The notes beneath the pieces were generated by a model. That model was not told the origin of the DNA. It worked only from the letters and a program-made list of their open reading frames with translations, and made no database searches. DNA of 39,845 nt, from the sequence record MZ234022.1. One strand, 5' to 3'. The position numbers and the translations under genes were made by a program. The stretch is from Escherichia phage vB_EcoP-101120B1-2. This document shows positions 1-33,466 of this stretch, one piece after another; position 1 is the stretch's first letter; the number at the start of each line of letters is the position of its first letter.

Positions 1-3000
1 ATGCAGGAGCAAGAGGACCGCTCTACGTGGTTCGGTTTCGGTGCGGCTACAGAAGCTGAAGTGAAGAACTCTATGGTCGGCGTGGCTATACGAGCTGGTC
101 AGACTGAGGACTCACTGGATGTCATTGGCGATGTGTTCAACCCAACCAGATGGAACAACCATAAGTGGTCTCGTGAGGAGCTAGACCAGATTCGTAACGC
201 TGGGGTTTTGCCTCAGTATTACGGAGTCATTACTGGTGGCTCTCCTCAGAACCTGACCGAGCTTATTAACTTGGCGCTTGAGAACCAGAAGTTGGACCAA
301 GAGAAGGCCAAGGCTGGGACTGGTGCTCAACTGGCGGCTGGTGTGATTGGTGCTGGCGTGGACCCTCTGACCTACGTTCCTATTGCTGGGCAGGTAGGTA
401 AAGGTGGTAAGCTAGTCAACAAGATGTTCACTGTGGCTGCTCAGTCTGGTGCTCTGGCTGGGGCATCCGAGATTGCTCGAACATCAGTTGCTGGTGGGGA
501 CGCTCATGTTGCTGAAGCTATCCTTGGTGGCGCTCTCTTCGGTGGTGGCATGACTGCTATCGCTGATGGACTAGGCAGAGCCTTAGGTCGCAACACTAAT
601 GAGTTTGCTGGTCCAGCTACACGTTTGGAAGCTCGTGAGACAGCTCGTAACGTTGATGGTCAGGACCTGTCCCGTCTCCCTATTCAGGAAGGTGAGCAGA
701 CCTTTAGTCATCAAGGCGTTAAGTTCGCTGACGTTCCGAATGAGCCGGGAAGTGTACGATTAGAAGACGGTTCAATCCTGATTGGTGAGAACCCTCTGAA
801 CCCTAAGACACGTCAAGTCTTTGACGAAGTGATTGAGCCGGAACGTGCCGCTGCTGGTGTGAACCTTGGTGGACTTACCGAGATTGGCCTGAAGCTGCTT
901 CGGTCTGAGAACCCTGAGATTCGTGGAGTAGCTGCTGACTTAGTGCGTTCACCTACTGGTATGCAGTCTGGGGCCTCAGGTAAAATCGGGACAACTGCGT
1001 CAGACGTGTTCGAGAGACTTCGTTCTGTGGACCATCGGTTCTACAACGACATCGACGATGCGGTTACTGAGGCACTAAAGGACCCGTACTTCCAGACTGC
1101 ATTCTGGCGAGACTCTGGCGCATTCCGTCAGGACATCTACCAGCGTGTGTCTATGGCTATCGAAGATGGTAGCGGAAACCTGAAGGCTGAACTGACTCCG
1201 GGAGAACTGAAAGTCTATGACCTACTGAAGAACCAGTTCGACGCCAAGCGTGAGATGATGGAGAACCCAGCGATGTTTGGTCGTCCAGACGCTCAGTCTA
1301 TCTTTCCGGGTAGCCGCTTCAAGGGAACCTACGTCCCTCATGTGTATAGCAAACAGATGAAGGAGCTGTACATCAAGGAGCTTGGGAGTCCAGAGGCGTT
1401 GCAGGAGGCCATCAAGAAGTCATGGTTGACCAGCTATGCGTCTCGACCTGAAGTCAAGAAACGCGTGGACGAGGCACTTTTAGAGGCTGACCCTACGTTG
1501 ACTCCAGAAGGACTTGCGGCTGCGGTCGATAAGTACGCCAACGATAAGGCTTATGGTATCTCTCACACCGAGCAGTTCGAGCGTTCATCCGTAATGGAGG
1601 AGAACATCAACGGGCTGGTGGGTCTGGAGAACAACAGCTTCCTTGAGGCTCGTAACCTGTTCGATAGCGATATGTCAATCGTTCTTCCTAACGGTCAGAC
1701 CTTCAGTGTCAACAACCTGCGTGAGTGGGACATGGACAAGATTGTCCCGGCCTACAACCGTCGAGTTAATGGTGATATTGCTATCATGGCTGGTACAGGC
1801 AAGACCACGAAGGAAATGAAGGACTTAGTTGAGACCATGATGAACAAGGCTGGCGATGACGGAAAGTTGAAAGGTGAAGTATCTACCTTACGTGACACCC
1901 TGAAGATTCTCACTGGTCGTGCTCGACGTGATGGTGCTGATGATGCGGCCTTCGCTACCGTGATGCGCACGATGACAGACCTATCGTTCTTCGCTAAGAA
2001 TGCCTACATGGGTGTTCAGAACTTAACGGAGATTGGTGGTATGCTGGCTCGTGGTAACGTTCGTGCACTGCTACACGGAGTACCGATGTTCCGTGACCTA
2101 GCCTTCCGTAACAAGAAGGTCGGGGCCTCGGAGATTAAGGACCTGCATAATGTTATCTTCGGTAAAGAATTAGACGACTCAATCCGTCCGTCTAAACAGG
2201 ATGTTATCGACCGTCTGCGATCTTACAGTGACCTTAGTCGTGGTACAGCTACAGCTCTGGGGACTGCTAAGTATTACACTGGTGAACTTGCAGTACGCTC
2301 TCCGTTCACTAAAGTCCTCAACGGTACGACCAACTACCTGTTAGATGCTGGACGTCAAGGCTTCCTGTCTGACATCGTGGAGCATAGCCTGACTGGTAGT
2401 AAGCGTAAGTTCGATGACCGCTGGCTGAAGACCGCTGGTATATCTGGCGAGCAGTGGAGTGGAATTAAGTCCCTAATCCGTGAGTCAGTGACTCGTGGGC
2501 CAGACGGGAAGTACACCATCAAGGATAAGAAGGCGTTCAGTCAGGACCCAAGGGCTATGGACCTGTGGCGTATGGGTGACACCATCGCTGACGAGACGTT
2601 ACTCCGGCCTCATAAGCTGTCAAACATGGACGCCAAGGCTTATGGTCCTCTCGCTAAGACTGTCCTTCAGTTTAAGAACTTCGTCATCAAGTCTATCAAT
2701 GGGAGAACCATGCGAACCTTCTATAACGCCACGAAGAACAACAGAGCGATTGACGCTGCACTGTCGACCGTGATGTCTATGGGTCTGGCTGGTATCTACT
2801 ACATGGCTCAGGCGCATGTCAAGGCTTATGCTATGCAGGATGGTCGAGACCGTGACTACCTTAAGCAAGCTCTGGACCCAACGATGATTGGCTATGCGGC
2901 CCTGTCCCGTAGTTCACATCTTGGTGGCCCACTTGGGGTAGCTAACATTCTGGGAGGCATCGCTGGATATGAGGACACTAAGATGCTCCGTTCGTCTATC

Positions 3001-30188: not shown

Positions 30189-31073
30189 ATGTCTCAATCA
30201 GTTTATGCCGAGTTCGGCGTTAGCTCTAATGCAATCACTGGTTCCGTTGAGGACCTGAACGAACACCAGAAGTCTATGCTTGAACAGGACGTAGCTGTTC
30301 GTGATGGCGATGACGCTATTACCTTCAAGCAACTGGAAGCCGAAAACGAAGAGGCGACCGAAGAAGACGAGAACGTCGAAGAGACGGAGGGTGCTGAAGA
30401 CAACGAGTCCGATGACGAAGAGTCTGAGACCGATGGTGAGCAGCCTGAGTTCATTGAACTGGGTGATGCACCGAAAGAGCTGACCGAAAGTGTCACCGCT
30501 CTGGATGAAAACGAAGCTGCATTTGACGACATGGTGTCTTCCGCTGTAGAAGCTGGCAAGGTCACTGCTGATGAAATTACCGCTATCAAGGCTGAATACG
30601 CCAAGGACGGTAAGCTGTCTGACGCATCCTACGCTAAGTTGCAGGAAGCAGGTTACACCAAGCGTTTCGTAGATTCGTTTGTCCGTGGTCAGGAAGCTCT
30701 GGCTGAACAGTATGCTGCTGGAGTGGTTCGCTACGCTGGTGGAGCTGAACAGTTTAACCGCATTCTGTCTCACCTTGAGTCAACCGACCCGTCAACTCGT
30801 GAGGCACTGGAAGCTGCTATCGTTCGTAAGGACATTTCGACTACCAAAGCTCTGCTGAATCTGGCTGGCAAGACTCTGGGTAAAGCTGTTGGTGTTAAAC
30901 CTCAGCGTACCATCACCACTCAGGCTAAACCTGTGGTCGCACCTAAGGCTCCTCAGACCGAAGCATTCAGCTCCAAGGCTGACATGATTAAGGCTATGAG
31001 TGACCCGCGATACCTTCGTGACGCTAAGTACACGATGGAAGTACGCGCTAAGGTAGCTGCCTCAAGCCTGTAG
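30189..31073 (+). CDS. Capsid assembly scaffolding protein (gp9 homolog)
   Basis: Start at ATG 30189 (MSQSVYAEFGV, cf. T7 VYASFGV) after SD AAGGAG; highly acidic N-half; C-terminal KAMSDPRY matches T7 gp9. Confidence 0.9.
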   Translation: MSQSVYAEFGVSSNAITGSVEDLNEHQKSMLEQDVAVRDGDDAITFKQLEAENEEATEEDENVEETEGAEDNESDDEESETDGEQPEFIELGDAPKELTESVTALDENEAAFDDMVSSAVEAGKVTADEITAIKAEYAKDGKLSDASYAKLQEAGYTKRFVDSFVRGQEALAEQYAAGVVRYAGGAEQFNRILSHLESTDPSTREALEAAIVRKDISTTKALLNLAGKTLGKAVGVKPQRTITTQAKPVVAPKAPQTEAFSSKADMIKAMSDPRYLRDAKYTMEVRAKVAASSL

Positions 31074-31074
31074 G

Positions 31075-31097
31075 ACTAAACTATCACTATAGGGAGA
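31075..31097 (+). promoter_or_regulatory. Phage RNA polymerase promoter (phi10 position), CTAAACTATCACTATAGGGAGAC
   Basis: Best match to a TATAGGGAGA initiating sequence, upstream of the major capsid gene. Confidence 0.8.
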
Positions 31098-31199
31098 CCA
31101 AGAGACAGACTCAAGGTTTCCCTATTACTTCAGTCCATACGGATTGGGCGTACAGTAAGTAATAAACTTTATCTTTCAATTGAATAGGAGAATTATCAT

Positions 31200-32249
31200 A
31201 TGGCAAACGTTCCGGGTCAGAAAGTTGGTACAGACCAAGGTAAAGGCAAATCTGGTTCCGACGCTCTGGCGTTGTTCCTGAAGGTCTTTGCTGGTGAAGT
31301 CCTGACCGCATTCACTCGCCGCTCTGTAACTGCTGACAAGCATATTGTCCGTACCATTCAGAACGGTAAGTCTGCTCAGTTCCCGGTCATGGGACGCACC
31401 TCTGGGGTGTATCTGGCTCCGGGTGAGCGACTGTCCGATAAGCGTAAAGGTATCAAACATACCGAGAAAGTGATTACCATTGATGGTCTGCTGACTGCCG
31501 ATGTGATGATTTTCGACATTGAAGACGCGATGAACCACTATGACGTGGCTGGCGAGTACTCCAACCAGTTGGGCGAAGCTCTGGCTATCGCTGCCGATGG
31601 TGCGGTACTGGCTGAGATGGCTATTCTGTGTAACCTACCGGCTACATCTGATGAAAACATCGCTGGTCTTGGCAAAGCGTCTGTGCTGGAAGTTGGTACT
31701 AAAGCAGACCTGAACACTCCGGCTAAGCTGGGTGAAGCAATCATCGGTCAACTGACCATTGCTCGTGCGAAGCTGACATCCAACTACGTTCCTGCTGGCG
31801 ACCGTTACTTCTACACCACGCCGGACAACTACTCTGCAATCCTCGCGGCTCTGATGCCGAACGCTGCTAACTATGCTGCGCTGATTGACCCAGAGACTGG
31901 TAACATCCGTAACGTAATGGGCTTCGTGGTTGTTGAAGTTCCACACTTGACTCAGGGTGGTGCTGGGGAAACTCGTGGTGCCGATGGTATCACTATTGCG
32001 ACTGGTCAGAAGCACGCCTTCCCAGCTACTGCTACTGGTGATGTTAAAGTTGCTCTGGACAACGTTGTGGGCCTGTTCTCTCACCGTTCTGCTGTAGGTA
32101 CTGTTAAGCTGCGTGACTTGGCGCTGGAACGTGACCGTGACGTCGATGCTCAGGGCGACCTGATTGTTGGTAAGTACGCTATGGGTCACGGTGGTCTGCG
32201 TCCAGAAGCAGCAGGCGCACTGGTTTTCACAGCGGCGTCAGCGGGTTAA
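31200..32249 (+). CDS. Major capsid protein (gp10A homolog)
   Basis: 349 aa; LALFLKVF..GEVLTAF, GKSAQFPV, HTEKVITIDGLLTADV, MNHYDV, ILAALMPNAANYAALIDPE, IRNVMGF, VVEVPHLT, HRSAVGTVKLRDLALER, KYAMGHGGLRPEAAG match T7 gp10A. Confidence 0.98.
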   Translation: MANVPGQKVGTDQGKGKSGSDALALFLKVFAGEVLTAFTRRSVTADKHIVRTIQNGKSAQFPVMGRTSGVYLAPGERLSDKRKGIKHTEKVITIDGLLTADVMIFDIEDAMNHYDVAGEYSNQLGEALAIAADGAVLAEMAILCNLPATSDENIAGLGKASVLEVGTKADLNTPAKLGEAIIGQLTIARAKLTSNYVPAGDRYFYTTPDNYSAILAALMPNAANYAALIDPETGNIRNVMGFVVVEVPHLTQGGAGETRGADGITIATGQKHAFPATATGDVKVALDNVVGLFSHRSAVGTVKLRDLALERDRDVDAQGDLIVGKYAMGHGGLRPEAAGALVFTAASAG

Positions 32250-32512
32250 CGACCTTTAAGGCCCTCTCTACAGAGGGTCCTACCTTAGAGACGTATAGTT
32301 CTACGGTGGGAACCAGCCTGAAGGTTGACTTCCCTGAGCTTTCAGATGTGACCGATTGGTCGCTGCTTGAGGTGACTACGCCTGATGGTGTTAGCTACTC
32401 CCGTAGAACCAACAGTCTCTACTTCAAGGCCACCTCTGGCGTGGAAGGTCTGGTGATTGTTGGGTATGACGGTACGCCTGTGCGTTCCTTCAACGTATCT
32501 TTCACAAACTAA
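32228..32512 (+). CDS. Minor capsid protein 10B extension: -1 frame ORF reached by programmed -1 frameshift at GGTTTTC (32222..32228); adds about 94 aa
   Basis: The -1 frame is open from 32174 to the stop at 32510-32512, overlapping the last 25 codons of gene 10. The heptamer GGTTTTC matches the T7 gene 10 frameshift site as I recall it. Tphi-like terminator follows. Confidence 0.6.
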   Translation, partial: HSGVSGLTTFKALSTEGPTLETYSSTVGTSLKVDFPELSDVTDWSLLEVTTPDGVSYSRRTNSLYFKATSGVEGLVIVGYDGTPVRSFNVSFTN

Positions 32513-32517
32513 TTGAA

Positions 32518-32557
32518 ACCCCTTGGGTGCCTTCGGGTGCTTGAGGGGTTTTTTTTG
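32518..32557 (+). terminator. Tphi-like intrinsic terminator (hairpin plus T8 run)
   Basis: AACCCCTTGGGTGCCTTCGGGTGCTTGAGGGGTTTTTTTT resembles T7 Tphi AACCCCTTGGGGCCTCTAAACGGGTCTTGAGGGGTTTTTTG. Confidence 0.8.
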
Positions 32558-32571
32558 CTTAAGGAGGGACT

Positions 32572-32661
32572 ATGTTCCTTATTTACACAGGGTTAGCACT
32601 ATTCGTCTTATTCTGGGCGTACCTGCTGCCCAGCTCACCGTCTAGCCCCTATGACCGCTAA
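32572..32661 (+). CDS. Tiny hydrophobic peptide (29 aa) between the terminator and gene 11, putative
   Basis: SD AAGGAGG 4 nt upstream of ATG; MFLIYTGLALFVLFWAYLLPSSPSSPYDR; stop overlaps the gene 11 SD. Confidence 0.25.
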   Translation: MFLIYTGLALFVLFWAYLLPSSPSSPYDR

Positions 32662-32672
32662 GGAGTAAACCT

Positions 32673-33239
32673 ATGTCTCAATACATTCCACTTAATGCTA
32701 ACGATGACTTAGATGCCATCAACGATATGTTAGCTGCTATTGGTGAACCAGCAGTCCTACAGCTTGACGAAGGTAACGCTGACGTCTCGAACGCTCAACG
32801 TATCCTGCATCGTGTTAATCGTCAGGTCCAAGCTAAAGGCTGGAACTTTAACATCAACGAAGCTGCTGTCCTGACGCCTGATGTCCAAGACAACAGGATT
32901 CGATTCCTGCCGTCTTACCTTCGGGTCATGACTGCTGGGACCACCAGCTACTACAGCAACATGGGTGGATACCTATACGACCTGTCCACTCAGTCAACCA
33001 CTTTCACCGACCCTATAACGGTAGAGCTTGTTGAGATGAAACCGTTCTCGGAGATGCCTGTGGTATTCAGGGACTACATCGTTACCAAGGCCAGCCGTGA
33101 GTTCAACGCTAAGTTCTTCGGTAGCCCAGAGTCTGAACTGTACCTTCGTGAGCAGGAATCAGAACTCTATCAGCAGGTCATGGAATACGAGATGGACACT
33201 GGTCGCTACAACATGATGTCCGACATCGGGAGGGACTAA
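32673..33239 (+). CDS. Tail tubular protein A (gp11 homolog)
   Basis: 188 aa, SD AAGGAG, at the T7 gene 11 position. Confidence 0.85.
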   Translation: MSQYIPLNANDDLDAINDMLAAIGEPAVLQLDEGNADVSNAQRILHRVNRQVQAKGWNFNINEAAVLTPDVQDNRIRFLPSYLRVMTAGTTSYYSNMGGYLYDLSTQSTTFTDPITVELVEMKPFSEMPVVFRDYIVTKASREFNAKFFGSPESELYLREQESELYQQVMEYEMDTGRYNMMSDIGRD

Positions 33240-33466
33240 TGGCTAGTCACAACCTGAAGATTCACCGCCAGCACTTTGGTCCGGTACAACTAGGTCTAAA
33301 GACAGCAGAGCTGAGACTTAACGACCGGGACTTTAAGGTTGGCGACTGGCTTATCCTGAATGAGTGGGACAACGGGTATACTGGACAACAGGTAGCACGT
33401 AAGGTTGTCCACATTGCTGACGTTGGTGACATCGCTGAGGGATACGTCCTAATGAGTATGATTTAA
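33239..33466 (+). CDS. ASCH/PUA-like small protein (DUF3850-like, 75 aa) inserted between tail tubular genes A and B
   Basis: KIHRQHFGPVQLGLKTAELRLNDRDFKVGDWLILNEWD...YTGQQVARKVVHI...EGYVLMSM fits the DUF3850 pattern as I recall it; TAATG coupling with gp11. T7 has no gene here. Confidence 0.6.
   Translation: MASHNLKIHRQHFGPVQLGLKTAELRLNDRDFKVGDWLILNEWDNGYTGQQVARKVVHIADVGDIAEGYVLMSMI

Follow-up and report, generated by a model that had tools for sequence, protein, structure and literature searches.

A T7-type −1 frameshift at the end of the major capsid gene of a Kayfunavirus phage very probably appends a predicted Ig-like domain

Introduction

Condron, Atkins and Gesteland reportedly described in 1991 the programmed −1 ribosomal frameshift by which gene 10 of bacteriophage T7 yields the capsid proteins 10A and 10B. 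The efficiency of this shift in T7 is about 10%. Fraser et al. are said to have defined in 2006 a class of Ig-like domains (Big_2, I-set and FN3) that are appended to phage structural proteins. In the review by Atkins et al., G_GU is named in the T7 gene 10 heptamer, and the frameshift extension is Ig-like in T3 and not in T7 (PMC5009743). The same source reports that frameshifting in T7 gene 10 depends, in an unexplained manner, on a CCCC within the terminator, which lies >200 nt downstream (PMC5009743). In phage K1F, gene 10b has likewise been ascribed to −1 frameshifting, and fusing gfp to it (g10b::gfp) gave a stable fluorescent phage (PMC6277420). For phage Kvp1, mass-spectrometric data showed that 10B is produced through a −1 slip at TTTTCA (PMC2579914).

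Annotated relatives of the phage analyzed here also carry this architecture. In phage Peacock (98.4% nucleotide identity), a joined CDS of the same length (1313 nt) is annotated as a "minor capsid protein" made by −1 frameshifting, and its extension (QEG09703.1) shares 96% amino-acid identity (90/94 residues) with the one described below. The 10B of phage CR8 (CDM21625.1) is annotated with a slip at "tttt" and has a homologous extension of 50% identity. The CR8 record notes "matches in mass spectrometry analysis", the matched peptides being unspecified, and the text of the CR8 genome announcement mentions neither 10B nor mass spectrometry. KP32-like extensions show ~45% amino-acid identity; KP32 isolates and Pectobacterium phage PP81 name the fragment a "minor capsid protein". 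Among the papers searched, none was found that links the genus name Kayfunavirus with frameshifting. Here, we describe the end of gene 10 in Escherichia phage vB_EcoP-101120B1-2 (MZ234022.1), whose whole sequence of 39,845 nucleotides is referred to as the window.

Results

Gene 10 and its surroundings

Over 1.5 kb around the site, sequence comparison gave 99.9% identity to Escherichia phage vB_EcoP-101120B2 (MZ234023) and to further members of Kayfunavirus, a genus of K1F-like phages within the T7 group (Autographiviridae, Studiervirinae). The order of genes is T7-like, namely portal, scaffold, gene 10, terminator, gene 11 and gene 12. The window is circularly permuted relative to the T7 convention, with gene 10 at 31.2 kb of 39.8 kb instead of ~21-23 kb, and this permutation of coordinates is common to the MZ2340xx series of records. 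The capsid gene is as follows.

31200..32249, + strand: gene 10 in the zero frame, major capsid protein 10A, 349 aa, 36.4 kDa (ORF list, Pfam, structure matches)

The zero frame ends at TAA 32247..32249. The 10A protein matched the Pfam family Gp10A-like with an E-value of 1.7e-104, and a PDB sequence search aligned its residues 1-344 to the solved capsid proteins 9vvq, 7y23 and 2xvr of T7. The same search found no structure covering the 10B extension, as the solved capsids stop at residues 1-344.

Two small ORFs were observed further downstream. Between the terminator and gene 11, a strongly hydrophobic ORF of 29 aa (MFLIYTGLALFVLFWAYLLPSSPSSPYDR) lies at 32572..32661, preceded by a near-perfect Shine-Dalgarno (SD) sequence, AAGGAGG, at 32561..32567. 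MZ234023 labels this ORF hypothetical; it gave no PHROG match, and the annotations of K1F and Peacock lack it, although one related locus, L025, carries a variant. Between the tail tubular genes 11 and 12, a DUF3850/ASCH-like ORF of 75 aa (PHROG "RNA-binding protein") occupies 33239..33466; its start overlaps the gene 11 stop, and T7 and T3 have no gene at that place.

Slippery site and open −1 frame

The last codons of gene 10 read CTG GTT TTC ACA GCG GCG TCA GCG GGT TAA. Because the codons run CTG GTT TTC ACA, the heptamer GGTTTTC stands in the register X XXY YYZ (G GTT TTC), six codons before the gene 10 stop. The original prediction had named this heptamer as the slippery sequence of T7, and the comparison bore this out: it is identical to the T7 site, and it is homologous and in register in T7 and K1F. 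The −1 frame had also been described as open across the end of gene 10, from 32174 through 32512, which was confirmed from the sequence and its translation; the run comprises 113 codons and closes at TAA 32510..32512.

32222..32228, + strand: slippery heptamer G GTT TTC, at which a tandem −1 shift after Phe343 is proposed (sequence, relatives, PMC5009743)
32228..32512, + strand: −1 frame extension of 10B, 94 codons plus stop (translation, dN/dS, AlphaFold2 model)

A shift after F343 would append 94 residues, and the translation gives exactly the residues quoted in the prediction. The computed product has 437 aa and 45.9 kDa, as compared with 349 aa and 36.4 kDa for 10A, and the net gain past the zero-frame stop is 88 codons. 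The predicted tryptic peptide over the shift junction is YAMGHGGLRPEAAGALVFHSGVSGLTTFK, with a monoisotopic mass of 2930.49 Da. A tandem slip at the heptamer predicts the junction ALVF followed by HSGV, and a shift in the stop context predicts TAASAG followed by LTTFK.

In the window, GGTTTTC occurs 2 times as compared with 3.7 expected, indicating no enrichment. The naive chance of the open run was ~0.01 for the 88 codons past the stop and ~0.003 for all 113 codons. An empirical null taken from the −1 frames of the other genes was uninformative, as many of these frames continue into the next gene. The case for a frameshift rests on the relatives.

Conservation among related loci

We gathered 30 related loci from GenBank phages and IMG/VR. 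One of them, L009, was left out because it has no capsid ORF of at least 250 aa, its capsid gene being annotated as fragments. In 25/25 loci carrying the exact heptamer, GGTTTTC was in register and the −1 frame was open to the end of the module. These loci include Kayfunavirus (a dozen contigs), Przondovirus (KP32, K11 and TH50), Caroctavirus CR8, T7 and K1F, and CTGGTTTTCA is invariant and in register in every one of them. In a divergent locus (L030; IMGVR_UViG_2974609768_000001, ~1395..1715), AGTTTTC was found at the homologous position and the same module is still open in the −1 frame; AGTTTTC would be a weaker context for P-site re-pairing.

The position of the recoding event within the 25-codon overlap also has to be considered. 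Since the −1 frame is open from 32174, any shift from 32174 to 32249 gives an extended product, and GCGGGTTAA is conserved in the window's own clade. Hence the extended protein could in principle arise by P-site slippage at G GGU UAA (32243..32249), or by slippage of the phage RNA polymerase on the run of four T. However, GGTTTTC alone is conserved across all clades, whereas the stop context differs in EV136_1, KP32 and CR8. Known RNA polymerase slippage tracts are far longer than four T, so the run here lies far below their length. Moreover, the T7 site has been mapped to the GGTTTTC heptamer, as cited in PMC5009743. Recoding at these other places is judged very unlikely, and the tandem slip at GGTTTTC is preferred.

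Selection was then analyzed as dN/dS on the portion of the extension beyond its overlap with 10A, using comparisons with at least 12 nt differences. In these comparisons, dN/dS was 0.09-0.18 in the −1 frame, in contrast to 0.6-3.9 in the other frames. For L007, L008 and L024, the most divergent among the relatives with equal length, the −1 frame gave 0.12, 0.18 and 0.17, respectively, as compared with 1.1-3.9 in the other two frames. Third codon positions of the −1 frame held 29/41 and 37/60 of the differences in this non-overlapping part. Across genera, the −1 ORF is kept at amino-acid identities down to 42-50%, with 24 invariant residues in the alignment (A1). A tblastn search with the 94 residues found the module in 454 phage records, the leading groups being phages of Klebsiella (285), Escherichia (53), Salmonella (35), Enterobacter (19) and Pectobacterium (13). 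Judged from these substitution patterns, the extension evidently evolves as a protein under purifying selection in the −1 frame.

These data also bear on whether the open −1 frame might be a relic that is not expressed, or an ORF that arose by chance in the stretch from gene 10 to the terminator. Such a view could appeal to the ~1% naive chance of an 88-codon open run and to the loss of half of the module in L025. Nevertheless, the purifying selection is strong and specific to the −1 frame, the ORF with its invariant residues is kept across genera, and the domain has a confident predicted fold, as described below. A relic or chance ORF therefore appears extremely improbable, and an expressed frameshift extension is the reading followed here.

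Relation of the extension to the annotated 68-aa ORF

The 3′ part of the extension coincides with an ORF of the public annotations.

32306..32512, + strand: 68-aa GTG ORF, annotated as a stand-alone hypothetical protein in most GenBank records seen (ORF list)

In MZ234023 and MT862763 this ORF is labelled hypothetical, and MZ234023 and the other records closest to the window carry no joined 10B annotation. Gene callers yield module fragments of 54, 63, 64, 68, 75, 83-84 and 87 aa, nearly all of which are called hypothetical, and a 78-member cluster holds calls of 64, 68 and 87 aa for a fragment of the module.

If 32306..32512 were an independent small gene of 68 aa with its own initiation, gene 10 would encode 10A only. 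Many records do list it as a hypothetical protein of its own or as a free-standing "minor capsid protein", and a GTG is present at 32306. This GTG, at extension codon 27, is the first start in the −1 frame past the stop; it has no SD-like sequence upstream, in contrast to the neighbouring genes, which are preceded by strong SDs, and the codon is GTA in L007. Among the compared lineages, neither a conserved start codon nor an SD for a stand-alone gene was found. Depending on the lineage, the first in-frame start falls at extension codon 27, 31, 8, 11, 9, 14 or 24, and none has a good SD, whereas every locus is open from the heptamer up to any start. Between the 10A stop and GTG 32306 lie 19 codons that, within the window's own clade, already show a third-position excess, with 5, 5 and 11 variable sites at the first, second and third codon positions. 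The segment ALSTEGPTLETYSSTVGTSLK of the extension peptide lies upstream of residue 27 and thus outside the 68-aa ORF. Because the predicted first β-strand (extension residues 21-26) precedes the GTG at residue 27, the 68-aa product would lose this strand. Independent initiation at 32306 is thus considered highly improbable, and we read the 68-aa ORF as the 3′ part of 10B. The programmed −1 frameshift that the original prediction proposed is accordingly supported by the 25/25 loci, by dN/dS and by the lack of an independent start.

Predicted fold and family of the extension

An AlphaFold2 model of the extension was built on a 13-sequence alignment. The pLDDT was ~50 for residues 1-20, indicating disorder, and 85-90 for residues 21-94, so that the extension is predicted to consist of a linker of ~20 residues and an Ig-like β-sandwich of ~74 residues.

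32228..32287, + strand: predicted disordered linker, extension residues 1-20, HSGVSGLTTFKALSTEGPTL (pLDDT ~50)
32288..32509, + strand: predicted Ig-like seven-strand β-sandwich domain, extension residues 21-94, PHROG 7473, no Pfam family

The first 7 codons of the linker overlap the last codons of 10A. Against PHROG, the extension matched phrog_7473, a family of unknown function, with an E-value of 6.7e-37. Neither this extension nor its counterparts in KP32 and CR8 gave a Pfam match at or near the cut-off, whereas the T3 extension, used as a control, matched Pfam Big_2 (E 4.4e-10); sub-threshold Big_3 matches were seen in 3/13 family members. The best Foldseek match in the PDB was the Ig-like domain of lambda gpV (E 9.9e-4), the capsid of phage N4 also being in the list, and the sole strong match in BFVD was the PP81 "minor capsid protein". 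Thus, by its predicted fold, the module is an Ig-like β-sandwich at the C-terminus of a structural protein, and it falls outside Pfam Big_2, I-set and fn3. These predictions fit the small surface decoration domain that had been suggested for the extension.

A word-indexed sequence search for in-frame fusions of capsid and domain, or for other contexts of the module, gave short ORF fragments only. An exhaustive profile search added a few fragments, low-complexity repeat proteins and one BACON-repeat protein, the last with an E-value of 3.6e-10; against the BACON domain (PF13004/PF19190), the profile-profile probability from hhalign was 37%. The "ALYF..DG..G.ELWKYDGT" matches of the profile search were rejected, as they look like motif or composition matches.

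The extension had been called unusually long. A shift adds 94 residues here, 96 in KP32, K11 and TH50, 91 in CR8, 56 in T7 and 48 in K1F; counted in codons past the zero-frame stop, the values are 88 here, 93 in KP32/K11, 86 in T3, 53 in T7 and 44 in K1F. Thus the description holds against T7 and K1F, but not against the T7 group as a whole, for which the length is ordinary.

Terminator, module boundaries and stimulatory signals

The Tphi-like terminator said to follow directly was found in place.

32515..32557, + strand: Tphi-like intrinsic/T7-RNAP terminator, hairpin plus T run, with CCCC at 32520..32523 (terminator scan)

Its stem (32515..32552) has 17 pairs and starts 2 nt after the −1 stop. 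The terminator is nearly identical in K1F and EV136_1, and Tphi of T7 is clearly related. When the window, K1F, T7, EV136_1 and KP32 were aligned, the sequences were conserved up to CTGGTTTTCA and again from the −1 stop and terminator (…AACTAA…AAACCCCTTGGG…), whereas unrelated or divergent modules lie in between. K1F and the present phage belong to one genus and carry different modules. By this alignment, the extension appears to occupy an exchangeable cassette whose borders are the slippery site on one side and, on the other, the −1 stop and the terminator.

The following was observed on spacing. In every GGTTTTC-type lineage (e.g. L004, L010 and L013), the −1 stop lies 2-14 nt before the terminator stem, and the distance from the shift site to the terminator ranges from ~150 to 300 nt across these lineages. 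In T3, which is of the CCCAAAG type, the terminator lies ~160 nt past the 10B stop. Locus L025 (IMGVR_UViG_2974604219_000001, 1495..1780) shows a natural deletion of the module's second half and of the terminator stem, after which the −1 frame runs on into the small hydrophobic ORF. Accordingly, the 10B domain and that copy of the terminator may be dispensable, or else the deletion is an assembly artefact.

When 72-109 nt after the heptamer were folded in nine lineages, no conserved canonical 3′ stimulator was found 5-9 nt downstream. Compared with shuffled sequences, the folds were inconsistent between lineages, the z-scores being −1.1 (first 72 nt) and −1.6 for the window and, again over the first 72 nt, +1.7 for K1F and −3.6 for KP32. 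An Rfam scan of 31000..32800 gave two chance-level matches only, with none at or near the gathering score. A hairpin, GGCCCUCUC-UACA-GAGGGUCC, was noticed at 32259..32281, 30 nt 3′ of the heptamer, and its position is retained with other sequence in L008 and L024. It was rejected as a stimulator, being too far downstream and not significant against shuffles. By analogy with T7, the conserved terminator with its CCCC at 32520..32523 is a candidate for a distant frameshift stimulator.

Discussion

This analysis provided the site, its register, the open frame, the purifying selection, the absence of any independent start and a fold prediction. Taken together, gene 10 is very probably decoded in two ways through a −1 ribosomal slip at GGTTTTC, giving 10A and an Ig-like-tailed 10B. 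In this mechanism, most ribosomes would stop at TAA 32247..32249 and release the 349-aa 10A. A minority would slip back by one base, the tRNA-Val and tRNA-Phe on GUU UUC (32223..32228) re-pairing on GGU UUU, and would then read the −1 frame to TAA 32510..32512 to make the 437-aa 10B. This protein would consist of 10A residues 1-343, the linker of ~20 residues and the Ig-like β-sandwich of ~74 residues. It would co-assemble with 10A and place the Ig-like domain on the head surface at a sub-stoichiometric copy number. In T7, the C-terminus of the capsid protein points outward, and T7 display vectors fuse peptides to the C-terminus of 10B; therefore, the Ig-like domain would decorate the exterior of the head. 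We infer the ribosomal nature of the shift, its efficiency, the presence of 10B in virions and a possible ligand for the domain.

The modules of the T7 group would be interchangeable, comprising the low-complexity tail of T7 and K1F, the Big_2 domain of T3 and the phrog_7473 domain, each filling the interval from the conserved slippery site to the −1 stop and terminator. As a speculative and rather doubtful extension of this idea, the phrog_7473 module may represent a hitherto undescribed family of Ig-like domains that decorate the capsid and may be glycan-binding (BACON- or Big-like). These would move as a "frameshift cassette" between T7-group genera, always from GGTTTTC to Tphi, and would serve to adjust how virions attach weakly to capsule, mucus or polysaccharide of the cell surface. 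The terminator next to the cassette may act as a distant stimulator at any cassette length (150-300 nt).

The value of these observations lies mainly in annotation and engineering. Because most records seen split 10B into a capsid gene and a bogus "hypothetical protein" of 54-87 aa, virion proteomics and pangenome counts are slightly wrong for therapeutic-candidate coliphages and for Salmonella and Klebsiella phages. The linker followed by an autonomous Ig-like domain, as predicted at the C-terminus of 10B, offers a natural and probably dispensable display site in Kayfunavirus and Przondovirus, comparable to K1F g10b::gfp. Furthermore, interchangeable modules behind one slip site form a natural series for probing what the long-range T7 frameshift stimulator needs.

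Compared with T7, the shift is in the same gene and at a homologous position, 5-7 codons before the 10A stop, with an identical G GUU UUC followed by A, and in both phages the −1 stop adjoins a Tphi-type terminator with CCCC. However, T7 appends an unrelated, low-complexity and probably non-globular stretch of 56 residues (53 net), whereas 94 residues (88 net) with a predicted Ig-like domain are appended here; the distance from shift site to terminator is ~220 nt in T7 and ~290 nt here. K1F, the type species of Kayfunavirus, shares the context AGGCGCACTGGTTTTCA (17 nt round the heptamer) and the terminator, but carries a T7-like tail of 48 residues (44 codons past the stop) in place of the Ig-like module. 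In T3 and phiYeO3-12, a −1 shift close to the 3′ end of gene 10 adds an Ig-like domain of ~86-90 residues, similar in size and presumed surface-decoration role to that described here; T3, however, slips on CCCAAAG (Lys) instead of GGTTTTC, and its domain belongs to Pfam Big_2, in contrast to the present module, which has no Pfam family. Peacock, CR8, the KP32-like phages and PP81 have the same heptamer, joined-CDS architecture and a homologous extension, and they do not differ in kind from the present locus. As the 10B product is annotated in Peacock and CR8 and has been treated in the work on K1F, Kvp1 and T7, the mechanism and its presence in the genus were already known. The finding is thus a rediscovery of the classical 10A/10B frameshift of the T7 group, already annotated in a 98%-identical phage, to which the assignment of an Ig-like fold outside Pfam, the cassette view and the mis-annotation in most records seen add modest increments.
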